Shown: piece by piece, positions 1,284-39,449 of the stretch
How positions within the stretch are numbered: the stretch's first letter is position 1
Layout of the letters: each line of letters begins with the position of its first letter
Assembly (NCBI GenBank): GCA_951812805.1
Contig: CATOSZ010000003.1
Coordinates: forward strand, 386,557-450,556
Source of the DNA: an uncultured Alphaproteobacteria bacterium
GTDB lineage: Bacteria; Pseudomonadota; Alphaproteobacteria; GCA-2731375
Reading direction: 5' to 3'
Length of the DNA: 64,000 nt
Made by a program: the position numbers and the translations under genes
Notes under the pieces: generated by a model
Told to the model about the DNA's origin: nothing
The model's input: only the letters and a program-made list of their open reading frames with translations
Database searches by the model: none

Positions 1284-3699
1284 CTATCCCCGCATCCGCG
1301 CGCCCCTCGGATCGAACAGCGGTTCGGCGAGGATGGTCGCCGGCCGGCGCTCGCCCAGGATCTCGATGGTGAAGTTCTCCCCCGCCACCGCCAGCTCGCG
1401 CGGCACCAGGCCGAGGGCGACCGAGCGTTGGACATGGTGCGCATAACCGCCCGAGGTGACGAAGCCGACGACCTCGTCGCCCTTCCAGATCGGCTCGTCG
1501 GCCCACACGTCGCTGTCCGTCGCCTCGACCGTGAAGGCCACCAGCTTGCGGGCCGGCGGCGCGTCGCGTTCCGCGAGCGCCGCGTCACGCCCGATGAAGT
1601 CGTTCTTGGCGAAGGAAATGAAACGGTCGAGCCCGGTTTCCGCCGCCGTATAGTCGGGCCGGTACTCCCGCATCCAGGCACCGAAGGACTTCTCCAGGCG
1701 CAACGACATCATGGCCCGCATGCCGAAGGGCTTCAGGCCGAGGTCGGCACCGGCCGCCGCCAGGGCATGATAGAGCTGCACCTGGTGTTCGGGTGCGACA
1801 TAGATCTCGAAGCCGAGATCGCCGGTATAGGTCACGCGGGCGACGATCGCCGGCACCAGGCCGACTTCCATCTCCGCGACCGAGAGGAAGGGCAGCGCCG
1901 CTTTCGAAACGTCGGCGCGGGTCACCCGCTCCATCAGCCGCCTGGCATGGGGCCCGGCGATCTGGAAGCCGACCCTGGAATCGGAAACATTCTCCAGCAC
2001 GACGCCGCGGTCGGGCAGATGCGCCTCGAACCAGCGCATGTGATAGCCCTGCGCCGCATAGGAGGCGGTGAGCTGGAAACGTTCCTGGCCCAGCCGCGCG
2101 ACGGTGAAGTCGCCGATCAACCGGCCGCGCGGGTTCAGCATCGGCGTCAGCACCATGCGGCCTTGCGCCGGCATGCGGTTCGCCATGATGTGGGACAGCC
2201 AGACCTCGGCGTCCGGGCCGCGCACCTCGTATTTGCCGAAGTTGTGGATCTCGTTGATGCCGACGGCGGTGCGGACGGCCGCGCATTCCGCCGCCGTCGG
2301 GGCGAAGGCGTTCGAACGGCGGAAACTCGGCGTCTCCTCCGCCGGCTCGCCCACGGGCGCGAAATAGTTCACCGCTTCCATCCCGAAGGCATGGCCGAAG
2401 ACCGCTCGTTCGGCCGCCCAGACCCCGTAGGCGGGCGTCGTGCGGAACGGGCGGGCCGCGGGCAGCTCCTCGTTCGGATAGGCGACGGCGAAGCGGCGCT
2501 GGTAATTCTCCACCACCTTGATCCGCGCGTAGGCGGGCGTCGTGTAATGGGCGAAACGGGCGACGTCCATGGCGAAGACGTCGCGGCTGGGCGTGCCCTC
2601 GACCATCCATTCGGCGAGCGTCAGGCCGACACCGCCGCCCTGGCTGAAGCCCGCCATCACCGCGCAGGCCGCCCAGTAGTTCTTGACGCCCGGCACGGGG
2701 CCGACCAGCGGATTGCCGTCGGGGGCGAAGGTGAAAGGCCCGTTGATCACCCGCTTCAGCCCGGCGTTGGCGAGACAGGGATAGCGCCGCCCGGCCGCCG
2801 CCAGCGGCTCGGCGATACGATCGAGCTTGTCCGGCAGCAGCTCGTGCCCGAAATCCCAGCTGGTGCCGTCGAGGGCCCAGGGCTCGCAGGCCTGCTCGTA
2901 AATGCCGAGCACCAGGCCGCGCCCTTCCTGGCGCAGGTAGGTTTCGCCCGCCGGGTCCATGATGTGGACGAGTTCAGAATCCCGCTCATAGACCTCGGGC
3001 AGGTCGTCGGTCACCAGATACTGGTGCTCCATCGGGTGCAGCGGCAGGTAGACGCCGGCCATCGCCGCCACCTCGCGGGCCCAGAGGCCGGCCGCGTTGA
3101 CGACATACTCGGCCCGCACCGTGCCCTGCTCCGTCACCACGTCCCACGCGCCGTCCGGCTGCGGGCGCAATTCCAGAACCCGGTTGCGCAGCACGATCTC
3201 CGCCCCGCCCAGGCGTGCCGCCTTGGCATAGGCATGCGTGGTGCCGGAGGGATCGAGGTGGCCGTCGAGCGGGTCGTAGAGCGCGCCGAGCACGCCGCCC
3301 GTATCGACGATCGGGGCGATTTCGACGATCTCCTCCGGCCCGACGATGCGGGTGTCGAGGCCCATGTGACGGTGCTTGGCCCGTTCCGCCACCAGATGAT
3401 CCATGCGGTCGGCCGTGGTCGCCAGGGTCAGGCCACCGACATGGTGCAGGCCGCAGGACTGGCCGCTGATCTCCTCCAGTTCCTTATAAAGGCGGATGGT
3501 ATAGCCCTGCAGGGCCGCCATGTTGGTATCGGCGTTGAGGGTGTGAAAACCGCCCGCCGCATGCCAGGTCGAGCCGGAGGTGAGCTCCGAACGTTCGATC
3601 AGCATGACGTCGGTCCAGCCGAACTTTGTCAGGTGATAGAGCACGCTGCAGCCGACGACGCCGCCGCCGATCACCACCACCTTGGCACTCGTCTTCATC
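1284..3699 (-). CDS. dimethylglycine/sarcosine dehydrogenase family protein (FAD oxidoreductase fused to GcvT-like folate-binding domain)
   Basis: Start MKTSAKVVVIGGGVVGCSVLYHL carries a Rossmann FAD dinucleotide-binding motif; length is ~805 aa. The C-terminal half has aminomethyltransferase-like sequence. The 5' extension in the ORF track is an antisense artefact overlapping the + strand hydrolase. Confidence 0.8.
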
Positions 3700-3785
3700 A
3701 GGCCGCCCTCCCCGGGAGTTTCCGCCACCGACCTCGCACCATAAGATGAGCTCGAGCGACTCGGAACCGGAAAATCGGGCGGCAC

Positions 3786-4727
3786 ATGGCACGACGACAC
3801 CTCATTCTCGACTGCGATCCGGGTGTCGACGACGCGCTGGCGATCCTGCTGGCCCTGGCCTCGCCGGAGTTGGCGCTCGAAGCCGTCACCTGCGTCGCCG
3901 GCAACGTCGATCTGGACCGCACCTCGGCCAACGCGCGGCGCGTGCTGGACCTGGCGGGACGCGGCGACGTTCCGGTCCACGCCGGCTGCGCGCGGCCCTT
4001 GATGCGCCGTGTCGGCGTCGACGCCGCCTGGGTGCACGGCGACGACGGGCTCGGCGGCATCGCGCTGCCGCCGCCGGCCGGACCGCTCGCCGACGGCCAC
4101 GCCGTCGATATCATCATCGAGACCGCGCGCCGGCTGCCGGCGGGGACGCTGACCCTCTGCCCGATCGGTCCCCTCACCAACATCGCGCTGGCGATCGTCA
4201 AGGCGCCGGACATCGTCGAGCGGTTGGCCGGAATCGTCCTGATGGGCGGGGCCGCCTTCAATCCCGGCAATGTCACGCCCGCGGCCGAATTCAATATCTA
4301 CGTCGATCCCCACGCGGCGCATATCGTCTTCGAGGCCGGCGCGCCGTTGGTCATGCACGGCCTCGACGTCACCCACAAGGCACCGGCGACGGCGGCCCGC
4401 CGGCAGACGCTCGGCGCCCTGCCCGCGCCGATCGGCCCCGCGCTCATCCGGATGCTGGGGGGATACGGCACCGGGGATCCCTTCGTGCACGACGCCTGCG
4501 CCGTCGCCTGGCTGCTGGCACCGGAACTGTTCGAGACGGTCGAGGCGCGGGTCGAGGTCGAATGCGCCAGCCCGCTGAACCTCGGCCAGACCGTCGCCCG
4601 GGTGAAGCCGCGCCATCTGGACGGCGCGTCCGTGAACGCGAAAGTTGCGATCGGAATCGACGACGACGGCTTCTTCGCCCTGCTGACCGAGCGGCTGGCG
4701 CGCCTGGCGGCGGGGATCGCGTCGTGA
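3786..4727 (+). CDS. nucleoside hydrolase (IunH/RihA family)
   Basis: N-terminal LILDCDPGVDDALAI aspartate cluster signature; 313 aa. Confidence 0.85.
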   Translation: MARRHLILDCDPGVDDALAILLALASPELALEAVTCVAGNVDLDRTSANARRVLDLAGRGDVPVHAGCARPLMRRVGVDAAWVHGDDGLGGIALPPPAGPLADGHAVDIIIETARRLPAGTLTLCPIGPLTNIALAIVKAPDIVERLAGIVLMGGAAFNPGNVTPAAEFNIYVDPHAAHIVFEAGAPLVMHGLDVTHKAPATAARRQTLGALPAPIGPALIRMLGGYGTGDPFVHDACAVAWLLAPELFETVEARVEVECASPLNLGQTVARVKPRHLDGASVNAKVAIGIDDDGFFALLTERLARLAAGIAS

Positions 4728-22346: not shown

Positions 22347-22477
22347 ATTCCGAAGAACGGACCGATGGCGTTTTATTCCCGCGAAGACCGCCACGGAAGA
22401 AGGCATCGCGATTTCTGATTATGGCGTACTCCGGGGGAATGGTCCCGCCGGCATCCGCCTTGCGTCCGACGCCGCAC

Positions 22478-22535
22478 CTCAGGCTTTGGGCACGTCGTAA
22501 CGGTTCAGGAGATCGTCGACGATGCCGTCGAGTTC
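22478..22535. repeat. direct repeat copy 1 (~57 bp; core 48 bp with 1 mismatch) = 3' tail plus stop of HpaB-like gene
   Basis: Core gggcacgtcgtaacggttcaggag[a/g]tcgtcgacgatgccgtcgagttc is shared with 25047-25094. Flanks differ on both sides. Confidence 0.7.
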
Positions 22536-22667
22536 GCCCCACAGCTCGGCCCGGTGCGCCTTCATGCGGGCGAGCGTGCCGGCTTCGTCCGCCTGCATCA
22601 GGCGCGAGTAACCGACGACGTCGGCGGCGAGCACGGCCGCGAGCCCGCGTTCAATGGCCTCGGACAT
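22479..22667 (-). pseudogene. chimeric remnant: first ~45 codons of a second class III adenylate cyclase fused to the 3' tail of an HpaB-like gene
   Basis: The N-terminus LAAVLAADVVGYSRLMQADEAGTLARMKAHRAELW parallels the N-terminus of the 20448 cyclase. The C-terminus ELDGIVDDLLNRYDVPKA* is the same tail as the 25038-25481 fragment, and is part of the direct repeat. Confidence 0.5.
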
Positions 22668-23835: not shown

Positions 23836-25059
23836 GTGCTTCGTGCGTCTGCTGCGTTATCCGCGCAACTGGCTCCCCCCGCGTGGACGGAAACACTGGT
23901 CACCACGGCACTCGCGGTGGGCACGGTCGTCCATGTCGGACTGTCGTCGGACGGCATCGACGCCGCCGCCGCCACTCTCGTGGCAATTTTCATCATCGGG
24001 CTCTTCTATGTCGTCGCCGCGCCGGCGATTGCCTTCCGGCCGACGTCGCGATCAATGGAATTTCTGGCCCGCCACGCCGACCACGCCGGGCTTTGGATGT
24101 CGCTTCCGGCCCTCGTCGCTTGTGGGCTGGTTTGGAACCCGAAGATGCTGGCCGTCCTGCTCACGGCCATGGCGATCGAATTGGCCTGGTACGTCAGGCG
24201 ACGTCGGGCTGGCGGTCGACGGTCGCTCTATCGCCTCGACGATCACGATCTCGCCGTCCTGAAGCGGCAGGCGGGAGGTAATCTCGCCGTATTCGGAAAG
24301 CGTCACGGCATCCGCGAGCTGGAGATAAATGCAAACGCCGACGCCTGGCGCGGATGCACCAAGGAATCCGCACCGTGTCCCTTCAATCTCTACGTCAACC
24401 GTCTCGGTCTCAATACCGCGCCCTGTTGCCGCGAACACCTGGCGGAACTTTGTCGTTACGTCGCGTCCCAGCTCTCGGAATTGAACTTCGTATACTGGCT
24501 GGACGGGGGAACCTTGCTGGGGGCGGTCCGGGAGGACGGATCGCTTTTGAAATGGGAGGACGACGTCGATCTTTCCGTCCTGCTGCAAGACGATGCGTCC
24601 TGGGATCGGCTGGTCGCCGAACTGGGCGCCTGCTGTCAGCGGGACGGCTTTTCCTGCGACGTCTTTGCCAAAGAAGGTTACCTCACGATCTCCTACGACC
24701 CGCCGCAAGCATGGCCGCTGCTCTACGAGCGCTACAGGATGAGGGGCGAGATCCGCCTCGATCTCTTCGTCTATCGGGAGGCGGACAGCCGCGGCTCGGC
24801 GGTGGTCGAGCGGCGGCACTACAAGGCGTCGATGCCCGAGACCGAAAGTGGTGGCTATGGCGTGGCGCGCGACATCGTGCTGCCGACCTCGACGATCACT
24901 TTCCTCGGCGAAGAGTACTCCTGTCCCGGTCGACCGGTTGCCTATCTCGAACAGCTCTACGGTGACTTTCGGAAGGTGGAGTATTCCTATGTCGACGACT
25001 CGGCCGCCCAAACCCGCCGATCCTTGGATGTCGAAGATCAGGCCTCGGGCACGTCGTAA
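23836..25059 (+). CDS. LicD-family (phosphocholine/phospho-sugar transferase, fukutin-like) protein with N-terminal membrane region; probably frameshifted near its 5' end
   Basis: LicD signature YWLDGGTLLGAVREDGSLLKWEDDVDLSV. The upstream frame (from ~23711) encodes a TM segment and joins this frame at a C6 homopolymer tract (~23866-23872). Low-GC islet. Confidence 0.6.
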   Translation: MLRASAALSAQLAPPAWTETLVTTALAVGTVVHVGLSSDGIDAAAATLVAIFIIGLFYVVAAPAIAFRPTSRSMEFLARHADHAGLWMSLPALVACGLVWNPKMLAVLLTAMAIELAWYVRRRRAGGRRSLYRLDDHDLAVLKRQAGGNLAVFGKRHGIRELEINANADAWRGCTKESAPCPFNLYVNRLGLNTAPCCREHLAELCRYVASQLSELNFVYWLDGGTLLGAVREDGSLLKWEDDVDLSVLLQDDASWDRLVAELGACCQRDGFSCDVFAKEGYLTISYDPPQAWPLLYERYRMRGEIRLDLFVYREADSRGSAVVERRHYKASMPETESGGYGVARDIVLPTSTITFLGEEYSCPGRPVAYLEQLYGDFRKVEYSYVDDSAAQTRRSLDVEDQASGTS

Positions 25060-25094
25060 CGGTTCAGGAGGTCGTCGACGATGCCGTCGAGTTC
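25038..25094. repeat. direct repeat copy 2 (native 3' end of HpaB-like fragment)
   Basis: See copy 1. Confidence 0.7.
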
Positions 25095-25481
25095 ATCCCA
25101 CGGCGCCTCGCGGAAGCTGTGGCCGCGCACGATGAAGGGGGCGCCCGCATAGAATTTCTCATAGCTCTGATGGCGGCCGGCGAATTCGGAGCCGAAGAGA
25201 TCCCAGGCCAGGCGGAGCAGTTTCATGCGGGAGACGGCATCCATCTGCGGGGTTTGCCAGTAGGTCTCGAAGCGCTCGCGCAACGCCGGTTCCTGCAGAA
25301 CACTGACGTCCGCCGGCATCTGGAAGACGCCGCCACCGCAGAGCTCGCGCAGGATGTCGATGATGCCCGCGTGGTTCTCGGTACACCAATTGAGCGCCGC
25401 ATACATCATGCGCCGATTGAACGTGAGGTGGCCTTCGGGCCAGCTCTCCGCGGTGTGAATCGGCATGCAAAACTGACCCAC
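25038..25481 (-). pseudogene. C-terminal ~147 aa fragment of an HpaB-like (4-hydroxyphenylacetate 3-monooxygenase oxygenase component family) gene, 5'-truncated by an IS21-family insertion
   Basis: Only the C-terminal portion is present. The frame opens immediately inside the left end of the IS21 element. Confidence 0.5.
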
Positions 25482-25629
25482 TTTGGTGGGTTATGAGCGG
25501 TAAGAATTGACCCACCTGGAACGCTGCGGATTTCGGTAGTTCCGGACGGCGGTTTCAGTAAGTCCTGGCCACCGATTTCATAAAGTCCCGGCCGGTTCCG
25601 GGAGTTTGGCTTCGGGTGCCTTGTTGCCG

Positions 25630-26406
25630 TCAGTCGGGATTGTTTTCCGTTGTGGTTGGCTGGGTCAAGTCGGTCGTCGATTTCTTCTTTCGCATGCTGT
25701 CGCCTTTCAAGCCGATGCGGTGGGCGTTGTGGATGACGCGGTCGAGGATGGCGTCGGCGATGGTGGCCTCGCCGATCAGGTCGTGCCAGGCGGTCACGGG
25801 GATCTGCGCGGTGATGAGGGTTGAGCGTCGGTGGTATCGTTCCTCGCAGATTTCCAGGAGATCGAGGCGCTGGCGGTCGGTCAGGCCATGGGTTCCCCAG
25901 TCGTCGAGGACGAGCAGCTGGACCCGGGCGAGGCGGTCGATCAGGCGGGGCAGCCGGCCGTCGAGGCGGGCCATGGCGAGGTCCTCGAAGAGCCTGGGCA
26001 TGCGGACGTAGAGGACGGAATGATCGAGCCTGGCGGCCTGATGGGCGATGGCACAGGCGAGCCATGTCTTGCCGGTTCCGGTCTGGCCGGTGACGATGAG
26101 GTTCTCGTGTGCCTTGAGCCAGACGCCCTGGGCGAGAGAGAGGACGGCGCGGCGGTCGAGGCCTCGTTCGGCGGCGAAGTCGATGTCCTCGATGCAGGCC
26201 TCGGGGAAGCGTAGCCTGGCCTGTCTGAGGCGGTTGGCGAGGCGCTTGTCGGCGCGGGTGGCGGCCTCGCGGTCGAGCATGAGGGCGAGCCAGTCCTCGC
26301 GGTTCAATTCCGATGATTGGCCTCGCTCGGCCATGTCGCGGTAAGCCTCTGCCATGCCCTTGAAGCCGAGGGCCTGCATCTGGTCGAGGGTCGGGTGTGT
26401 CAGCAT
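25630..26406 (-). CDS. istB: IS21-family helper ATPase IstB
   Basis: Walker [14 protein letters not shown], IstB family. Real start [14 protein letters not shown]; the track ORF is 5'-extended. Confidence 0.85.
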
Positions 26407-26423
26407 GAGGTGTCTTCTCCTGG

Positions 26424-27977
26424 TTATCGGTAGTAGCCGGGGCCGCGGATGTTGGTGTGTGGCGGCAGCGGCAGAAGCGGTTCGCGCTCGGGGCGTGTGC
26501 GATCGAGGCCGGACTTGAGGATGGCGGCGAGCGATGAGTAGCTGGTCGTGTTGATGGTGAGCGCGCGTGCGCAGGCGGCCTCGACGCGTTCCGGTTCGTA
26601 TCGGCGGGCGAGCGACAAGACGCCCATGGCGCTGCGATAGCCTTGCTCGGGATGGGGCCGATCGCGGATCATCCGCTCGACCAGGAGGGCGGCGTTGGGG
26701 CCGATGCGGCTGGCCTGGTCGATCAGGCTTTGTGGCGTTCGCTCGGCATAGCGCTGGTGCGCCTTGGGCATGTGGGCCGGGATCGTGGCATGGCCGCCAT
26801 GCGGTGAGCGGCGGAGATGGCTGGCGACGCGCTTGTGGTTGTGGAAGATCTCGACCGTGCGGTGAGTGAGCCGGACTTGGACCTTGCGGCCGATCAGGCC
26901 GTGCGGCACGGAGTAGAAGCTGCGCTCGACGTCGACGTGATAGTCGGAATGGACCTTGGCGGTCTTCCATTCGGCATATTCGAAGGGCGTCGTCGGCAGG
27001 GGTGCCAGGGCCTCGCGCTCGATGGCCTCGAACATCTGGCGCCGGCTCTTTCCAAGGTTGCGCATGGGCCGCTCGTTGAGCTCCTCGAGGAGGTCGCGGA
27101 TCGCCCGGTTGAGCTGGTCGAGGGAGAAGAAGCGCGTATTGCGCAGTCTTGCCAGGATCCAGCGCTCGACGACCTGGACGGCGACTTCGACCTTGGCCTT
27201 GTCGCGCGGCTTGCGGACCCGGGTCGGCAGGACGGTGGTGTCGTAGTGCTCGGCGAGCGCGGCGAAGGTCGGGTTGAGGGTCGGCTCGAACCAGAGCGGC
27301 TTGGCGACGCCGGCCTTGAGGTTATCGCAGACGATGCTCTTGGGCACGCCGCCGAAGTAGGCGAGCGCCCGGCATTGTCCGGCGACCCAGTCGGGCAGGC
27401 GCTGGGTCAGGCTGGCGGTGGCGAAGGTGAGCGAGGAAGCGCCCAGCACGGCGACGAAGATCTGCGCGTCGTGCACCTCGCCGGTCTCGGGGTCGACGAT
27501 GTCCACCGTCTGGCCGGCATAATCGGTCTGCATGACCGCACCGGCCTCGTGGCGGTTGCGCCAGGTGGCGCCGGTGCGCCGCTTGAACGCCGTGAAGGCT
27601 TCGCAGAACCAGGTGTAGCCGTAGCCATCGGGATGTGAGGCGCGGTATTCCTGCCAGAGCAGGGTCAGCGTCACCCCCTTGCGCTTCAGCTCGGCCGCGA
27701 CCGTCGGCCAGTGCGGCTCGCACCTGTCGCGCGGGGGCCGGCCCATGCGGCGGAACAGCGTCTCTTGCAGGACCGCGTCGTCCTCGTATTCCGCCGGCAG
27801 CGGCCAGGCGGTAAGGCCGACCTCGCGGGCCCGCAGCAAATAGGTCGACACTGTCGTCTTGGAGACCTTCAGCCGTTCCGCCACCTCTCGCGCCGAGAGG
27901 CCTTGGTCATGCGTCAGCCGCAGGATCGTTCGTGCATCTCTCACCGTCGTTCGTCTCGTCTGCTTCCGTCTGGGCAT
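26424..27977 (-). CDS. istA: IS21-family transposase IstA
   Basis: N-terminal HTH ([21 protein letters not shown]) plus DDE integrase core; ~517 aa. Confidence 0.85.
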
Positions 27978-28200
27978 GTCCCCTCCCGGCAAAAGCCAAG
28001 AGGTAGACGCCGAGACGGCGCACCCGAAAGCTGAACTCAGATCGCCCCGTGATGCTGTCCGGGACTTTCCGGAATCACTGGCCGCGACTTACTGAAATCT
28101 CTGGCCAGGACTTTCCGTAATCGGTGTCCGGGACTTTCCGAAACGCGCAGAACGCTAGCATCCGCACGGAACAGTGCGGAGGAAAGAGCAGGTGGTATTG

Positions 28201-29700
28201 ATGGAAAGCGTATTGAAGATCCGACGTTGGATATTACGGGAGGGTCGGAGTATCCGATCTGTATCTCGTCAGACTGGTTTGTCGCGGAACACGATTAAGA
28301 AGTATCTGAAGGACGGCGATCCACCGAGCTATCAGCGGCGCGTTTCACCCGTCCGGCGTAAGCTTAGCGATGGCTTCGCCAGCCGGCTTCGGGCGCTCTT
28401 TGAGCAGGACCTGGGGCGCCCGCGCCGTGAGCGCCGGACGGCCAAGAAGCTTTATGAGCAGCTTGTGTCGGAAGGCTATAGCGGATCCTACTCGACGGTT
28501 CAGAGGTTTGTCCGCGACCTGAAGCGTTCTGGCGCCGGATCGGGGGATGCGTTCATTCCGTTGCACTTTACGGCAGGTGACGCGCTCCAGTTTGACTGGA
28601 GCACGGAATACGCTGTCCTGGGCGGTGTCGAGCAGAAGGTAAAGGTTGCCCACTTCCGCCTATGTCATAGCCGCAAGCCCTTTGTTGTTGCCTATCCCAG
28701 CGAATCTCAGGAGATGGTGCTGGACGCCTTTGCACGGGCGATGTCTTTCTATGGCGGCGTACCGCGCCGGGTGATCATCGACAACCCCAAGACGATGGTA
28801 ACCTATGTTTCGCGCTCTAAGGACCGTGTGTTCCATCCGCGCTTTCTGGCGTTGATGAACCACTATGTGATGGAACCGGTTGCTTGCACACCCGCGGCGG
28901 GGTGGGAGAAGGGTCAGATTGAGAACCAGGTTGGGTTCCTGCGGGGACAGCTGTTTGCGCCCAAGCCCGCCTTTGACGATCTGGATGCGCTGAACGGCTG
29001 GTTGCGTCTGCGCTGCGAGGAATTGGCGAATCGCGCCCACCCCGAACAATCGGATCGCAAGATCTCGGACGTGTTCGCAGACGAGTGCGCCGAACTGCGT
29101 CCCCTGGGCCGGGCTTTTGACGGCTATGTTGAGAAGGCCGCTCGTGTCCGCTCTACCTGTCTGGTCCAATATGCCACCAATCGCTATAGCGTCCCCTCCC
29201 GGTTCGCCGGGGAGCTTGTCTCTCTGCGCGCCTATGCGGACCGGATCGTGGTTGTGTCAGGGCAGAATGTGATTGCCGAGCACAAGCGCCGCTTTACCCG
29301 CAACGCCAGCTATTTCGAGCCCTGGCATTACCTGCCCCTACTCGACCGCAAGCCCGGCGCGCTGAGAGATGGCGCGCCCTTTGTGGGTTGGCAATTGCCT
29401 GAGGCGATGCACCGGGTCAGGGCGCATTACATGGCCGGCAAAGGCGGGGACCGGGAGTTTGTCGATCTGCTCCTGCTGGCCCAGGATCACGGGATCGAGG
29501 TGGTCGAGATAGCCTGTGAACTGGCCGTGGAGCAGAACACGCTGCGCCTTCCGGCCATCATCAATCTGATCAACCAACTGGTGGAGCCGGTCATCGCGCC
29601 ATGGGGCGAGAGCCACGCCTATCCGCAACTGACCTTGCGGCCCGAAGCGGACTGCAAGCGCTATGAGACGCTGTGCGTTGCCGGGGAGGCCGTCGCATGA
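28201..29700 (+). CDS. istA: IS21-family transposase IstA (copy 2)
   Basis: Starts MESVLKIRRWILREGRSIRSVSRQTGLSRNTIKKYL (HTH) followed by a DDE core. Confidence 0.85.
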   Translation: MESVLKIRRWILREGRSIRSVSRQTGLSRNTIKKYLKDGDPPSYQRRVSPVRRKLSDGFASRLRALFEQDLGRPRRERRTAKKLYEQLVSEGYSGSYSTVQRFVRDLKRSGAGSGDAFIPLHFTAGDALQFDWSTEYAVLGGVEQKVKVAHFRLCHSRKPFVVAYPSESQEMVLDAFARAMSFYGGVPRRVIIDNPKTMVTYVSRSKDRVFHPRFLALMNHYVMEPVACTPAAGWEKGQIENQVGFLRGQLFAPKPAFDDLDALNGWLRLRCEELANRAHPEQSDRKISDVFADECAELRPLGRAFDGYVEKAARVRSTCLVQYATNRYSVPSRFAGELVSLRAYADRIVVVSGQNVIAEHKRRFTRNASYFEPWHYLPLLDRKPGALRDGAPFVGWQLPEAMHRVRAHYMAGKGGDREFVDLLLLAQDHGIEVVEIACELAVEQNTLRLPAIINLINQLVEPVIAPWGESHAYPQLTLRPEADCKRYETLCVAGEAVA

Positions 29701-29916: not shown

Positions 29917-31466
29917 TAGCAGCCTGTCGGACTCGGGCATGCAAGGATTGGTAAGATTGGCTTGGCGGGCGTCGATGTCATGGATTTACCCCCATGAAGT
30001 TGCGAACGCGGGTTGGCCCGCCCGTTCAGGCGTGGCTGAGGACGAACATCCGCTTGATGTTCCAGGAGAGCGTGGCCAAGGTCCATTCCCCCTTCGCCTT
30101 GTCGAGGCCGCGCAGGCTGAACTGACGCAAGCCCATCACCGATTTGATGATGCCGAACACCGGCTCCGGCGTCTGCTTGCGAAGCGCGTAGAGCGCCCGG
30201 CCCTCGGGTGTGGCCAGGCGATGGCACATCGCCTCGAGCGGCGTCGGATCCTCGGGCGCTGGCGGCGCCTCGGCGAAGCGGTCCCGCCAGGAAAGATGGT
30301 GGTGCTCCCGGCCGAGCGCGATCAGCGGCGCGATCTCCGCTTCCCCGCAGGCCTCGACGTTGGCCTGGCTGAAGTAGCCGCTGTCCGCCAACAGGGTCTC
30401 GACCTCGCCAAGCCCGTCCGGCAGGCCGGCGAGTGCTTCGAGCGTCGGTTCGATCTGCTGCTTGTCGTTCGCCGCCTGCACCACGTCGGCGCTGACCACC
30501 AGCAGGCTGCCGGCGGCCACCGCAGCCTGGGCGTTGTAGCACTGCTCGAAGCCGCCGCCGGCCACCGGCATGATGCGCGAGTCCGGGTCCGTCAGGTTGA
30601 CCTGGTCCTTCGCCCGTGGCCCCGGCTCCGGCGGCTTCGGTGGCCGCCCGCCCGGCTTGCGGCCGGTCCGCGTTTCCTTCGCCTCGCGGGCTGCCAGCTT
30701 CTCTTCGTACTCCGCCTGCTCCCGCGCATGACGCTCGGCCGCCCGCGCCTCGATCTCCGCCTTCGCCGCGGCGATCGCCGCCAGCCGGTCCTCGCGCCGT
30801 GCCAGCTCCTCCGGCACGCTCATGCCGTCGGGAACCTCGGACCGGTCCGCCGCTTCCGCCAACGCCATCAACTCCGCCACCTCGGCCCGCAGCCGGGCTT
30901 CGATCTCGCCCGCACGCTGCCACGACAGGGCGCTGTGCCGGCTCGCGTCGGCATGGATCTTCGTCCCGTCCAGCGCCACCGTGCCCAGTTGCAGCATGCC
31001 GGCCTGCCGCGCCAGCAGCAGAACCTGCACGAACAGCCCCTCGATCAGCGGCAGGAAGCGACGGCGGAACGTGGCGATCGTGTCGTGGTCGGGGTGGTCG
31101 TTTGCCGCGATGAAGCGGAAGGCCACCGAATCATAGCTCGCCCGCTCCAGCTTCCGGCTGGAATGCACCCCCGTCGCGTAGCCGTAGATCAGCAGGCCCA
31201 GCAGGACGCTCGGGTGATGCGCCGCCGAGCCCGAACCACGATAGGCCTTCACGAACGCAGAGAGATCCAGCTGCTCCAGCACATCGACCACGAAGCGCGC
31301 CAGATGACGATCAGGCAGCCATTCGTCCACCGAAGGCGGCAGAAGATAGCTGGTCTCCCGGTCAACCTGTCGAAAGTTGCTCATCACAAAATCACCGCGC
31401 AGGAGAGAATCAGACCGTGACAGTGAATCTCATCTCGAAACTCGGCTCAAGTCCGACAGGCTGCTA
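29917..31466. mobile_element. IS1182-family (IS5 superfamily) insertion sequence, copy A, ~1.55 kb, flanked by TAG (CTAG) target duplication
   Basis: Sequence-identical to 36155-37705. Terminal inverted repeats cagcctgtcggact...agtccgacaggctg. Inserted at a ctag inside istB. Confidence 0.8.
30026..31387 (-). CDS. IS1182-family transposase (453 aa)
   Basis: InsH-like N-terminal domain, central coiled-coil/charged linker, DDE_Tnp_1-type C-terminus. Confidence 0.85.
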
Positions 31467-31976
31467 GCCGCCGTCACCCAAGCGCAAATCGACCCCTTCT
31501 GCTCAGGGCAGTTCACCCAGGAGGCCCACAACCTCATTCTGGTGGGCGGAACCGGTACGGGCAAAACCCACATCGCCATTGCTCTGGGGACGCTGTTGAT
31601 CAATCAGGGAAAGAAGGTCCGTTTCTTCAACGCCGTCGATCTGATCAATGCGCTGATCAAGGAACAGGCCGAAGGCAACGCCGGCAAGATCATCCGGCAA
31701 CTGACGGCCATGGATTGCGTCATCATCGACGAACTGGGCTATATCCCATTCCCCAAATCCGGCGGTGCGCTCTTGTTCCACCTGATCAGCAAACTCTATG
31801 AGAAGACCAGCGTCATCATCACCACCAATCTGGAGTTCGGGGAATGGGTCTCCGTCTTCGGAGATGCAAAAATGACAACCGCGTTGCTGGATCGTGTAAC
31901 GCATCACTGCGCAATCATCGAAACAGGCAACATGTCTTACCGCTTCGCACAAAGCAAACAGCGACGACAAAAGTAG
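31467..31976 (+). pseudogene. istB: istB (copy 2) C-terminal fragment
   Basis: Walker [14 protein letters not shown]; continues the 29697 frame across the IS1182 insertion. Confidence 0.7.
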
Positions 31977-35863: not shown

Positions 35864-36157
35864 ATGCGAATGATGCTGAGGTGGAGCGTACCGGTGGAGC
35901 GCGGCAACGAGGCGATCGCCGACGGCACGATGGGCCGGGTGATCGGCGAGCTGATGGAGAAGCTGAAGCCGGAGGCCGCCTACTTCTGGCCGGAGCAGGG
36001 CGAGCGGGCCGGCATGATGGTTTTCGACATGGCGGGCTCCGTCGACATCCCCGCCGTCGCCGAGCCGCTGTTCGTGAATCTCGACGCCGATGTCGAGTTC
36101 AATCCCGTGATGAATGCCGAAGATCTGCAGAAGGCGCTCGCCAACCTTCCCGACTAG
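35864..36157 (+). CDS. hypothetical small protein (97 aa)
   Basis: GGGAGGGA RBS and good GC3 bias. Its TAG stop coincides with the IS1182 copy-B insertion site. Confidence 0.45.
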   Translation: MRMMLRWSVPVERGNEAIADGTMGRVIGELMEKLKPEAAYFWPEQGERAGMMVFDMAGSVDIPAVAEPLFVNLDADVEFNPVMNAEDLQKALANLPD

Positions 36158-37705
36158 CAGCCTGTCGGACTCGGGCATGCAAGGATTGGTAAGATTGGCT
36201 TGGCGGGCGTCGATGTCATGGATTTACCCCCATGAAGTTGCGAACGCGGGTTGGCCCGCCCGTTCAGGCGTGGCTGAGGACGAACATCCGCTTGATGTTC
36301 CAGGAGAGCGTGGCCAAGGTCCATTCCCCCTTCGCCTTGTCGAGGCCGCGCAGGCTGAACTGACGCAAGCCCATCACCGATTTGATGATGCCGAACACCG
36401 GCTCCGGCGTCTGCTTGCGAAGCGCGTAGAGCGCCCGGCCCTCGGGTGTGGCCAGGCGATGGCACATCGCCTCGAGCGGCGTCGGATCCTCGGGCGCTGG
36501 CGGCGCCTCGGCGAAGCGGTCCCGCCAGGAAAGATGGTGGTGCTCCCGGCCGAGCGCGATCAGCGGCGCGATCTCCGCTTCCCCGCAGGCCTCGACGTTG
36601 GCCTGGCTGAAGTAGCCGCTGTCCGCCAACAGGGTCTCGACCTCGCCAAGCCCGTCCGGCAGGCCGGCGAGTGCTTCGAGCGTCGGTTCGATCTGCTGCT
36701 TGTCGTTCGCCGCCTGCACCACGTCGGCGCTGACCACCAGCAGGCTGCCGGCGGCCACCGCAGCCTGGGCGTTGTAGCACTGCTCGAAGCCGCCGCCGGC
36801 CACCGGCATGATGCGCGAGTCCGGGTCCGTCAGGTTGACCTGGTCCTTCGCCCGTGGCCCCGGCTCCGGCGGCTTCGGTGGCCGCCCGCCCGGCTTGCGG
36901 CCGGTCCGCGTTTCCTTCGCCTCGCGGGCTGCCAGCTTCTCTTCGTACTCCGCCTGCTCCCGCGCATGACGCTCGGCCGCCCGCGCCTCGATCTCCGCCT
37001 TCGCCGCGGCGATCGCCGCCAGCCGGTCCTCGCGCCGTGCCAGCTCCTCCGGCACGCTCATGCCGTCGGGAACCTCGGACCGGTCCGCCGCTTCCGCCAA
37101 CGCCATCAACTCCGCCACCTCGGCCCGCAGCCGGGCTTCGATCTCGCCCGCACGCTGCCACGACAGGGCGCTGTGCCGGCTCGCGTCGGCATGGATCTTC
37201 GTCCCGTCCAGCGCCACCGTGCCCAGTTGCAGCATGCCGGCCTGCCGCGCCAGCAGCAGAACCTGCACGAACAGCCCCTCGATCAGCGGCAGGAAGCGAC
37301 GGCGGAACGTGGCGATCGTGTCGTGGTCGGGGTGGTCGTTTGCCGCGATGAAGCGGAAGGCCACCGAATCATAGCTCGCCCGCTCCAGCTTCCGGCTGGA
37401 ATGCACCCCCGTCGCGTAGCCGTAGATCAGCAGGCCCAGCAGGACGCTCGGGTGATGCGCCGCCGAGCCCGAACCACGATAGGCCTTCACGAACGCAGAG
37501 AGATCCAGCTGCTCCAGCACATCGACCACGAAGCGCGCCAGATGACGATCAGGCAGCCATTCGTCCACCGAAGGCGGCAGAAGATAGCTGGTCTCCCGGT
37601 CAACCTGTCGAAAGTTGCTCATCACAAAATCACCGCGCAGGAGAGAATCAGACCGTGACAGTGAATCTCATCTCGAAACTCGGCTCAAGTCCGACAGGCT
37701 GCTAG
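36155..37705. mobile_element. IS1182-family insertion sequence, copy B (identical to copy A, same orientation)
   Basis: Flanked by TAG on both sides; the identity of the ORFs and nucleotide lines is visible directly. Confidence 0.8.
36264..37625 (-). CDS. IS1182-family transposase (copy B)
   Basis: Identical 453-aa protein. Confidence 0.85.
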   Translation of the reverse strand: MMSNFRQVDRETSYLLPPSVDEWLPDRHLARFVVDVLEQLDLSAFVKAYRGSGSAAHHPSVLLGLLIYGYATGVHSSRKLERASYDSVAFRFIAANDHPDHDTIATFRRRFLPLIEGLFVQVLLLARQAGMLQLGTVALDGTKIHADASRHSALSWQRAGEIEARLRAEVAELMALAEAADRSEVPDGMSVPEELARREDRLAAIAAAKAEIEARAAERHAREQAEYEEKLAAREAKETRTGRKPGGRPPKPPEPGPRAKDQVNLTDPDSRIMPVAGGGFEQCYNAQAAVAAGSLLVVSADVVQAANDKQQIEPTLEALAGLPDGLGEVETLLADSGYFSQANVEACGEAEIAPLIALGREHHHLSWRDRFAEAPPAPEDPTPLEAMCHRLATPEGRALYALRKQTPEPVFGIIKSVMGLRQFSLRGLDKAKGEWTLATLSWNIKRMFVLSHA

Positions 37706-37970
37706 TCCGCATTTCTCACACTATCCACGGCCTCAGCGGCGCTGTGGGCCCGACAGGGAAGGAGCGCTGCGCCGTTCGATGTGGTTCATCGTACAAGCAG
37801 TGCGACGCACCCTGTCGGGCCCACAGCGCCGCCCGAAGGGTCTATCTGGGCCGGCCGCTCGGCGAGATGCGGTCCCTCGACGTAGCCCCGCTACGCTTTT
37901 GGGCCCGCACCTCGCCGAATCGACTCGGCCCAGATAGACTGAGGCCATGGATAGTGTGAGAAATGCGGAC
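37706..37970. mobile_element. MITE-like 265-bp element with 31-bp terminal inverted repeats and nested internal palindromes, flanked by TAG
   Basis: The TIR tccgcatttctcacactatccacggcctcag pairs with ctgaggccatggatagtgtgagaaatgcgga (30/31). Internal perfect 23-bp IR gcggcgctgtgggcccgacaggg / ccctgtcgggcccacagcgccgc, and a further IR gtctatctgggccg / cggcccagatagac. Confidence 0.55.
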
Positions 37971-38123
37971 TAGGCGCGACCGACCGCGGCAAAAACACAG
38001 CCCCGTGACTTGACGGCGTGGGGCGGGGAGGCCAACAAGGGCGTCCCGCCCCGGGCGCCGTGGTCACCTGCGCCCACCCGACCCGGCGCTTACCGCCACC
38101 GCCCCGCAACCGGAGCCGTCCCC

Positions 38124-39449
38124 ATGGGTCTCGACGTCGCGATCTGGATGTTTCCGGCCCTGCTGGTGATGATCTTCCTCGGCTTTCCCGTCGCCTTCTG
38201 CCTGATCGGGACCGCCTTCCTGTTCGGCCTGCTGCGCTGGCCGCCGGAATCCCTGGCCTTCATCCTGGTCACCAAGGTGCACGACGTTTCCGGCGCGCAT
38301 GTGCTGGCGGCGATCCCGCTGTTCGTCTTCATGGGCGCGATGCTGGAACGCTCGGGCATCGCGGCGAAGCTGTTCGACGCCATTCACCTGTGGACCCGGC
38401 GGCTGCCCGGCGGCCTCGCCGTCGGCACCATCCTGATGTGCGTGGTCTTCGCCGCGGCGAGCGGCGTGCTCGGCGCGACCGAGTCCGTGGTCGGTATCCT
38501 GGCGATCCCGCCGATGCTGAAATACGCCTACGACAAGGGATTGATCAGCGGCACGATCTGCGCCGGCGGCTCGCTCGGCACGATCATCCCGCCGTCCATC
38601 CTGGTCGTCCTGCTGGGCCCCGTCGCCAGCGTCTCGATCGGCGATTTGTTCATCGGCATGATGATCCCGGGCCTGATGATCGCCGGCCTCTACATCCTCT
38701 ATATCCTGGTGCTTTGCTCGATCCGGCCGCGGCTCGGCCCGCGCCTGCCGCGCAGCGTCGAGGAGCCCCCGTTCTGGCGCAAGATCGTGATCTCGCTGAC
38801 CGCCCTGGTCCCGCCCGTGCTGCTGGTGGTGACGGTGCTGGGTTCGATCATGATCGGGGCGGCGACGCCGACGGAGGCGGCGGCGATGGGGGCGGCGGGA
38901 ACCATCGTGCTCACGCTCGCCTACGGCAACTTCAGCTTTCGGGCGATGTGGCAGGCCCTGGTCCGCACGCTGCTGGTCTCCTCGATGATCATGATGATCT
39001 ACATGGGCGGATTGATGTTCTCCGGCATCTTCATCGCCGCGGGCGGCATGAACCTGATCACGGACATGATGAACGCGACCGGCCTCACCGCCTGGTCGAC
39101 GCTCTTCGTCATCCTGATCCTGGCCTTCGTCGCCGGCTTCGTGCTCGACATGATCTCGATCATCCTGATCTTCGTGCCGATCTCCATCTCGCTGATGCAC
39201 AAGTTCGGCTTCGATCCGGTCTGGTTCTCGATCCTTTTCCTGATCGTCATCCAGACCAGCTACCTGACGCCGCCGATGGCGCCGGCGATTTTCTACCTGC
39301 GCGGCATCAGCCCGCCCGAGATCACCCTGCGCGACATGTACCGCGGCGTGATCCCCTTCATCGGCCTGGAGATCGTCGCGATCGGCCTGGTCATGGCCTT
39401 CCCGGGCCTGGCGCTGTGGCTGCCCTCGAAGGTTCTCGGCTTCAACTAG
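38124..39449 (+). CDS. dctM: TRAP transporter large permease DctM (orphan; no dctP/dctQ upstream)
   Basis: 441 aa with the typical DctM 12-TM layout. Upstream 150 bp abuts the MITE/IS. Confidence 0.8.
   Translation: MGLDVAIWMFPALLVMIFLGFPVAFCLIGTAFLFGLLRWPPESLAFILVTKVHDVSGAHVLAAIPLFVFMGAMLERSGIAAKLFDAIHLWTRRLPGGLAVGTILMCVVFAAASGVLGATESVVGILAIPPMLKYAYDKGLISGTICAGGSLGTIIPPSILVVLLGPVASVSIGDLFIGMMIPGLMIAGLYILYILVLCSIRPRLGPRLPRSVEEPPFWRKIVISLTALVPPVLLVVTVLGSIMIGAATPTEAAAMGAAGTIVLTLAYGNFSFRAMWQALVRTLLVSSMIMMIYMGGLMFSGIFIAAGGMNLITDMMNATGLTAWSTLFVILILAFVAGFVLDMISIILIFVPISISLMHKFGFDPVWFSILFLIVIQTSYLTPPMAPAIFYLRGISPPEITLRDMYRGVIPFIGLEIVAIGLVMAFPGLALWLPSKVLGFN

Follow-up and report, generated by a model that had tools for sequence, protein, structure and literature searches.

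In a 64,000-nucleotide stretch of the genome of an uncultured alphaproteobacterium (GenBank assembly GCA_951812805.1, contig CATOSZ010000003.1, positions 386,557 to 450,556; hereafter "the window"), a small palindromic element is lodged between an insertion sequence (IS) of the IS1182 family and dctM, and its situation raises two questions: what such an element is, and which transposase moves it. A preliminary description, made from the letters of the window, considered it a MITE (miniature inverted-repeat transposable element) that could be mobilised by a transposase of the IS5/IS1182 type or, alternatively, a structured RNA. The element is an ordinary MITE in its size, its lack of a gene, its terminal inverted repeats, its target duplication, the empty orthologous sites in related contigs and the dispersed copies found elsewhere. 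It is probably a non-autonomous cut-and-paste transposon with ends of the IS1380 type, moved in trans by a transposase of the IS1380 family into the tetramer CTAG, and one of its features, a branched palindrome whose arms covary, could go beyond the ordinary.

The element as an insertion

The element measures 264 bp and is flanked on either side by CTAG, the sequence between positions 37702 and 37973 reading CTAG-TCCGCATTTCTCACACTATCCACGGCCTCAG ... CTGAGGCCATGGATAGTGTGAGAAATGCGGA-CTAG (Table 1). The compact, TAG-flanked unit recognised earlier is retained, with its length corrected from 265 to 264 bp and its flank from TAG to the 4-mer CTAG; the 31-nt terminal inverted repeats and the perfect inverted pairs of 23 and 14 nt were all located as claimed, and a repeat finder reports a further pair of 18 nt. 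The terminal 21-mer of the element occurs twice in the window, at its two ends, where no occurrence is expected by chance. The longest open reading frame (ORF) inside the element encodes 71 amino acids and has zero homologues among 5.8 billion protein clusters, in agreement with the lack of coding capacity noted earlier.

Insertion polymorphism was established through related contigs. The closest DctM sequences in the protein collection (99% identical) lie on two contigs, L004 and L005, whose nucleotide sequence is approximately 91.5% identical to that of the window to either side of the locus, and DctM sequences that are 90% identical lie on nine further contigs (L006-L014). In all 11 of these contigs a DUF3303-like ORF is followed by dctM some 150-160 nt further on, and neither the IS nor the element is present; once the IS and the element are removed from the window, each with one CTAG, the remainder is colinear with L004 and L005. 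The element is thus an insertion. In these two contigs the insertion site reads GTGA, not CTAG, and we infer the sequence that preceded the insertions. The local layout (cccgaCTAG-IS-CTAG-element-CTAGgcgcg) holds three CTAGs for two insertions, as expected if one CTAG received both insertions in turn and each duplicated its target.

Copies of the element were sought with a two-ended pattern, CCGCATTTCTCACA-N(220-250)-TGTGAGAAATGCGG, run over a viral-contig collection and metagenomes, which yielded one viral element (L022) and 83 metagenome stretches, or 86 elements when that of the window is counted. In 68 of the 86 (61 unique), 260-264 nt separate the repeat cores and the interior is homologous to that of the window element. 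Homology follows from the alignment scores, which are approximately 187-307 in one orientation and 140-194 in the other, the distinction being less clear for a few copies (L059, L061). In addition, a family hidden Markov model (HMM) built without the window sequence matches positions 37707-37968 (+) with E=1.2e-39, and an interior-only HMM, from which the termini had been removed and the window copy left out, still matches 37728-37932 (+) with E=7.4e-26. At 92% identity this main family forms 21 clusters, the largest of which has 28 members; the nearest to the window copy are L025 and a three-copy cluster on contigs of assembly CAJHYG01, which likewise begin with T. Several copies may occur in one assembly or contig, as exemplified by the three near-identical ones in CAJHYG01, the two on one L044 contig and the extra ends seen on other contigs. 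The G+C content of the metagenomic loci has a median of 65%.

Among the 62 main-family copies with scorable flanks, CTAG stands on both sides in 29 and TTAA on both sides in one, and in most of the others a single position of one flank departs from CTAG; among other elements with the same ends, CTAA/CTAA and TTAG/TTAG pairs were found. The identity of the TTAA, CTAA and TTAG pairs indicates that the duplication spans 4 bp and not merely TA. In some metagenome contigs (L036 with L028; L075 with L052 and L023) the left and right flanks come from two different loci, a sequence pattern that indicates either chimeric assembly or recombination between copies and which accounts for many of the non-identical flanking 4-mers.

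The presence of a lone copy in the window, in direct contact with an IS, could suggest a chance or local palindrome, such as an immobile artefact of replication or repair at the end of IS1182. That explanation is refuted by at least 67 internally homologous copies at unrelated metagenomic loci, with CTAG duplications of their own, and by the empty site in relatives, which leave it practically no probability. The family comprises no fewer than 68 copies with homologous interiors, whose repeats are terminal and whose flanks are mostly CTAG, and the earlier reading as a MITE is well founded: the element is small and non-coding, has terminal inverted repeats and a 4-bp CTAG duplication, and is missing from the orthologous site in 11 related contigs. 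That reading also withstands the outcomes named in advance as refuting it, a single copy with no counterpart at TAG sites of related genomes, or repeats that are not terminal once further copies are aligned.

The ends and the candidate transposase

The question of which transposase acts on the element is addressed by its ends. Against CCCGCATTTCTCACA, the repeat that ends IS1380-family ISs, the outermost 15 nt of the element (TCCGCATTTCTCACA) agree at 14 of 15 positions, the sole difference being T for C at the first base, and the consensus of the MITE family, most copies of which begin with CCC, matches at 15/15. When the terminus was compared with plasmids by a permissive blastn search, a weak match (E=8) turned out to coincide exactly with one extremity of a 1657-bp IS on plasmid p1 of Bradyrhizobium sp. 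62B (ggCTAG-CCCGCATTTCTCACAG ... GTGTGAGAAATGCGGG-CTAGtc). The terminal repeats of this IS are CCCGCATTTCTCACA on the left and TGTGAGAAATGCGGG on the right, with CTAG outside both, and its frameshifted ORF corresponds to an IS1380-family transposase (NF033539, 350 bits; PF13701, 440 bits), the copy being, to judge from its frames, probably inactive. In the plasmid record (L015, 3099-4494) this transposase is unannotated and occupies two overlapping frames, 3099-3365 and 3295-4494. An IS on a megaplasmid of Stutzerimonas zhaodongensis has 15-nt ends identical to those of the Bradyrhizobium IS, and more diverged ends occur in elements of Rhizobium leguminosarum (CCCGAATCTCTCAAA) and Sinorhizobium fredii NGR234 (CCTGAATATCTCAAA); CTAG is found on both flanks of all four related ISs. 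A blastn hit to the terminus in Sinorhizobium was set aside as due to chance.

ISs with CCCGCATTTCTCACA ends therefore resemble the element in their terminal 15 nt and in their CTAG flanks, whereas they are 1629-1657 bp long, encode a DDE transposase (NF033539, PF13701) and have no Y-shaped interior, the element being 264 bp long and gene-free. The same ends are also borne by 16 of the other 18 elements recovered by the pattern, whose interiors are unrelated to that of the main family (Table 1), the remaining two, L064 and L090, being indel variants of it. Unrelated interiors behind the same ends suggest that this IS1380 clade gave rise to several MITE families. Long palindromes that differ from those of the main family occur inside several of the ends-only elements; furthermore, the interior of L035 holds an additional right end with CTAG after it, and in L084 another left end directly follows the right-hand CTAG.

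According to this model, the 15-16-bp termini would be the predicted recognition sites of an IS1380-family DDE transposase, acting in trans and supplied by a full-length IS with the same CCCGCATTTCTCACA ends, and the target would be the rare palindrome CTAG (more loosely, YTAR), duplicated upon integration. In the window, the element would have entered a CTAG that includes the stop codon of the upstream neighbour of dctM, the DUF3303-like ORF, and the IS1182-family IS, which likewise targets CTAG, would have entered the same site to the left of the element, either before or after it.

A transposase of this neighbouring type, or one of the IS5 type, had been suggested as the partner of the element by way of a shared TAG or CTAG target. 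Both IS1182 copies of the window are flanked by CTAG and one of them abuts the element, and MITEs derived from IS5 or IS1182 have precedents in MITEPsy1, with its CTAG/YTAA duplication (PMC3189936), and MITEPye1 (PMC11578231). In addition, an internal box of the element, CACCCTGTCGG, agrees with the IS1182 end CAGCCTGTCGGACT at 11 of 14 positions, although this comparison was made post hoc, with an estimated chance p of roughly 0.02-0.05, and the box is oriented inside-out with respect to the IS end. The terminal repeats, however, which are what a DDE transposase recognises, are unrelated (TCCGCATTTCTCACAC in the element, CAGCCTGTCGGACTC in the IS1182 of the window), and it is the IS1380 ends that fit instead. 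Nor does adjacency require a functional tie, since CTAG is scarce in the window (26 occurrences, against 193 expected from base composition, or approximately 7-fold depleted) and serves two unrelated transposases as their target, with one more CTAG created every time an element inserts; of the 26 occurrences, 5 flank the element and the two IS1182 copies, and the CTAG-IS-CTAG-MITE-CTAG layout results from the shared site. No metagenomic copy was seen beside an IS1182 end, although no systematic search for one was made. Mobilisation by an IS1182 or IS5-type transposase is therefore considered highly improbable, and the partner assigned to the element shifts from IS1182 to IS1380, a case in which a shared target and adjacency provide no evidence of mobilisation by the neighbouring IS. 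Depletion of CTAG, combined with its use by two unrelated transposases, also offers an explanation for the local pile-up of mobile elements. As for other tetramers, the window has 9 occurrences of TTAA and 6 each of CTAA and TTAG.

Several observations weigh against mobilisation by an IS1380-family transposase. No gene for such a transposase was found in the 64-kb window, in the approximately 150 kb of L004-L014 or in the approximately 480 kb around the metagenomic copies. A simple origin by internal deletion from the sampled IS1380 ISs was rejected, because similarity ends after 15-17 nt and what lies beyond consists of short chance matches. The window copy itself is atypical: it begins with T instead of C, as do only 4 of the 62 scorable main-family copies (the window copy, L029, L037 and L088) and the indel variant L090, it forms a singleton cluster that is 53-68% identical to the others, and no second copy was found in the 64-kb window. 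Finally, terminal positions 2-15 are invariant in all 21 cluster representatives, but this conservation is partly imposed by the scan pattern, which fixed 14 nt at each end. At the level of sequence, the independent support for the ends is their identity with IS1380 ends, together with the CTAG flanks.

A branched palindrome and its upkeep

Beyond its ends, the element is characterised by an extremely stable fold. The predicted RNA fold reaches -213.5 kcal/mol on the + strand (z = -21 against dinucleotide shuffles) and -223.8 kcal/mol on the - strand (z = -20), and the DNA fold -124 kcal/mol (z = -17.8). On either strand the shape is that of a branched Y, in which an outer stem leads to two long arms and a tiny hairpin, CC-NNN-GG, occupies the junction, and it is this branched form, rather than the "one long interrupted hairpin" envisaged in the preliminary description, that is conserved. 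When one representative of each of the 21 clusters is aligned (alignment A3), the RNAalifold consensus comprises 91 pairs, distributed over the outer stem (15-16 conserved terminal pairs and approximately 14 variable ones), arm 1, the junction mini-hairpin and arm 2. Changes on both sides were recorded for 64 of the 91 pairs; in the outer stem (helix 1) they concern 15 of 29 pairs, in the variable extension. Pairing is kept in 93.5% of the 1905 cells, as opposed to 74% in column shuffles and 33-42% with slid partners, and the covariation score is 0.50, as opposed to 0.15 and at most 0.09, respectively; none of 500 shuffles reached the observed values. Phylogeny is not taken into account by the column shuffle, and these very sequences served to derive the structure, but the margin is very large. 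The viral copy, L022, adopts the same fold on its own with different stem sequences, and upkeep of the structure spans at least 21 diverged lineages while identity drops to 53-68%.

Strong covariation and a stable fold on both strands could point to a structured non-coding RNA that, for example, stabilises mRNA, is a target of RNase III or acts as a terminator, in line with proposals made for the ERIC and Correia elements. Conserved non-palindromic blocks at the arm tips and internal loops would fit such a role, as would the excess of co-directional flanking genes (15, versus 7 in the opposite direction, with a further 4 convergent and 3 divergent). Copies nevertheless occur in both orientations with respect to neighbouring genes, with no strong bias. 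No Rfam family was matched at the gathering score by the window copy or by 10 diverse member loci, which gave only sub-threshold matches to generic hairpins (miRNA precursors), and a scan of the element found no promoter-like or terminator-like site. Non-Watson-Crick cells number 175, of which 51 are G-U (2.7% of cells), not clearly above the 36 A-C, and 88 are transversion mismatches, as common as the other two combined; the corresponding counts in minimum-free-energy folds of individual sequences, 66 versus 99, lean towards the opposite strand, such that no strand is consistently indicated. Unpaired columns are not more conserved than paired ones (0.725 versus 0.722), and terminal repeats and a target duplication are traits of transposons and not of RNA genes. 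That the element is, or carries, a structured RNA consequently appears unlikely.

The lack of a preference for G-U pairs and the absence of strand bias suggest that the palindrome is kept at the level of DNA. The data thus favour, from the pattern of substitutions, complementarity maintained in the DNA, a strand-specific RNA function being less likely; it should be borne in mind, however, that copies are inserted in both orientations, and that selection on the folding of transcripts of either strand would also favour stems made of Watson-Crick pairs only. Two mechanisms could be responsible. In the first, folding of a single strand or extrusion of a cruciform would bring both ends together and aid transposition; in the second, the arms would correct each other through hairpin-templated repair.

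A more specific and rather doubtful proposal is that the branched palindrome is a functional part of transposition, IS1380-type transposases preferring a folded single strand or a cruciform, and that the core of arm 1 (CGACAGGG ... CGATG-loop-CATCG ... CCCTGTCG) serves as a second protein-binding site. Within that arm, the resemblance of the CACCCTGTCGG box to the IS1182 end may be a coincidence or may likewise reflect a second protein-binding site. In a weaker form of the argument, the fold would be kept because, whichever way round a copy is inserted, it renders the insertion harmless or makes it useful as RNA. If the stronger form were true, it would imply structure-dependent mobilisation of a MITE, a mode that has not been described for IS1380 or piggyBac-related transposases. 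Whatever the cause, the 21 lineages, with their 64 covarying pairs and Watson-Crick-only compensation, constitute a clean data set on the question of why bacterial MITEs keep stable secondary structures.

Setting of the element and comparison with known systems

The position of the element between IS1182 copy B and dctM, as initially described, is borne out by matches to NF033551 and PF06808 (Table 1). The element contributes 268 bp, and above all the IS 1.5 kb, to a separation of dctM from its conserved upstream partner gene, which is of relevance to annotation. That partner, the small DUF3303-like ORF, is always found upstream of dctM, and no dctQ or dctP is adjacent to dctM in the window or in L004-L014. 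Downstream of dctM, a PCuAC/LpqE-like ORF is present only in the window, L004 and L005, and L006-L014 have an ORF with a metallo-beta-lactamase fold (PF00753, weak, or PF19583). On the far side of the IS, an IS21-family element is followed by the IstA of a second one, then by IS1182 copy A and, beyond copy A, by an IstB Walker-A-like sequence; copy A seems to lie inside this second IS21 (28174 to about 31900), which makes the region between 25 and 38 kb of the window a nest of insertion sequences.

Table 1. Positions of the parts of the element, of neighbouring features and of elements that share its ends (window coordinates, except in the last row)
Feature	Position	Strand	Remarks
Left CTAG duplication	37702..37705	.	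doubles as right-hand CTAG of IS1182 copy B
Whole non-autonomous element (MITE), 264 bp	37706..37969	+	+ is the orientation of the family alignment
Outer arms with CTAG, 35 nt	37702-37736 / 37939-37973		34/35 complementary (repeat finder)
Terminal inverted repeats without CTAG, 31 nt	37706-37736 / 37939-37969		30/31
Left terminal inverted repeat core TCCGCATTTCTCACAC	37706..37721	+	14/15 against IS1380-family repeat CCCGCATTTCTCACA
Right terminal inverted repeat core GTGTGAGAAATGCGGA	37954..37969	-	repeat finder, family alignment
Outer-stem variable extension	37722..37736	+	pairs with 37939-37953; one C/A mismatch at 37728
Arm 1	37736..37832	+	perfect 23-bp stem (37736-37758 / 37810-37832, repeat finder) and structured tip; from repeats, fold and alignment
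Family-conserved core of arm 1	37751-37817	+	CGACAGGG, hairpin CGATG-loop-CATCG, CAAGC, GACGCA, CCCTGTCG
Best-conserved internal box CACCCTGTCGG(C)	37805-37819		A3 columns 104-118; partner CGACAGGG
Junction mini-hairpin CC-GAA-GG	37833..37839	+	between the arms; CC/GG pairs in 20/21 representatives; loop variable
Arm 2	37840..37939	+	perfect 14-bp stem (37840-37853 / 37926-37939) and 18-bp stem (37859-37876 / 37901-37918, 89%), both from repeat finder; tip hairpin GTAGC-CCC-GCTAC; self-match 37840-37939
Right CTAG duplication	37970..37973	.	sequence, repeat finder
IS1182-family IS copy B (neighbour, outside the element)	36158..37701	-	own CTAG 36154-36157; ends CAGCCTGTCGGACT, without similarity to the ends of the element
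Transposase of IS copy B	36264-37622	-	NF033551, 356 bits; Pfam DDE_Tnp_1_6, DUF772
IS1182 copy A	29920-31467		99.9% identical to copy B; CTAG-flanked, as is copy B
DUF3303-like ORF	35864-36157		stop codon TAG within a CTAG
dctM	38124-39449		PF06808; 150 nt beyond the right CTAG of the element
IS21-family element	25538-28135		59-nt imperfect terminal repeats
IstA of the IS21-family element	26424-27992	-	
IstB of the IS21-family element	within 25630-26970	-	
IstA of a second IS21	28174-29700	+	followed by IS1182 copy A
Direct repeat of ~64-110 nt	22445-22554 and 25004-25113		77-92% identity; 2.56 kb apart, beside the IS21 element
Ends-only elements	L026, L027, L032, L035, L040, L046, L051, L063, L079, L084, L092, L094, L098, L100, L102, L105		248-278 nt between cores; 14-nt ends shared

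Searches for closer relatives of the window copy had various outcomes. The 21-mer of its terminus has no match in the metagenomes, which suggests that its subfamily is rare. An 18-mer of the terminus, scanned over 185,579 species-representative genomes, gave three single matches, two inside ORFs (Lachnospiraceae, Bacteroidota) and one intergenic (Aliifodinibius), which were taken as chance, about 17 being expected by our own estimate. The Aliifodinibius match (L003, 744-880) consists of TCCGCATTTCTCACACTA in an AT-rich intergenic region, with a 15/16 inverted partner, GTGAGAAAAGCGGA, approximately 120 bp away; it could represent a very distant small relative, and is treated here as chance. The whole element, the commonest family member and L022 found no match by blastn against plasmids or phages. 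In a translated search, the open frame of the commonest subfamily had 19 matches and the ORF of the window none.

As to the sites chosen, a preference of the element for stop codons, of the kind found in the window and at L022, was unsupported: on 32 of 116 sides the frame that ends in the TAG of the flank stays open over 80 codons or more, as opposed to 30 and 23 in control frames. The L022 copy (2071-2334 of IMGVR_UViG_3300021327_000052) occupies the same locus as L041, in a prophage-like region where a tail-fibre chaperone domain, Peptidase_S74, is encoded by a neighbouring ORF (2913-4409). On one side of this copy is an ORF of 652 aa with its TAA stop in the left-hand TTAA, on the other a GNAT-like ORF, and the flanks of the copy, TTAA and TCAA, are imperfect. 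Such a prophage-like setting may be a means by which the element spreads horizontally.

No description of IS1380-associated MITEs was found in the literature searched, and the sequence is absent from Rfam, PLSDB and the phage collection, ISfinder being outside the scope of the search; the element apparently belongs to an undescribed family of IS1380-associated MITEs. Two known bacterial MITEs can be compared with it, one of which derives from ISPsy2, which we take to be an IS5-family IS. MITEPsy1 of Pseudomonas syringae pv. phaseolicola, the ISPsy2 derivative, is 100 nt long, has 18-nt repeats (GGAAGGTCTGAAAAAGCC), duplicates CTAG or YTAA and has been shown experimentally to be mobile (PMC3189936). 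Like the element, it is a bacterial MITE in which the terminal repeats are short and the duplication measures 4 nt and is of the CTAG type, but there is no relation in sequence and its interior is not a branched palindrome. MITEPye1 of Paracoccus yeei is intergenic, derives from IS1182 and is predicted to form a long stem-loop (PMC11578231). It is likewise an alphaproteobacterial MITE, and of the very IS1182-derived kind that had been supposed earlier, but its ends are IS1182-like, whereas those of the window element are not.

Upkeep of stems by evolution is also a property of ERIC elements (approximately 127 bp) and of the Correia elements of Neisseria (100-160 bp), which are small intergenic imperfect palindromes or MITEs that, once co-transcribed, can take effect as RNA. 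Each folds as one hairpin, and Correia elements duplicate TA; to our knowledge, neither has ends of the IS1380 type. Their likeness to the element resides in the kept stems, while sequences, hosts, sizes and the single-hairpin fold differ.

A last comparison is offered by piggyBac, a eukaryotic transposon that has 13-bp terminal and 19-bp internal repeats and strictly targets, and duplicates, the 4-bp palindrome TTAA. IS1380 transposases are its distant prokaryotic relatives (PMC10140906), and the elements described here, found mostly on high-GC metagenome contigs, form a widespread MITE family tied to these relatives. Without being related to piggyBac in sequence, the family resembles it in the use of a 4-bp palindromic target, which in one copy is flanking TTAA on both sides.

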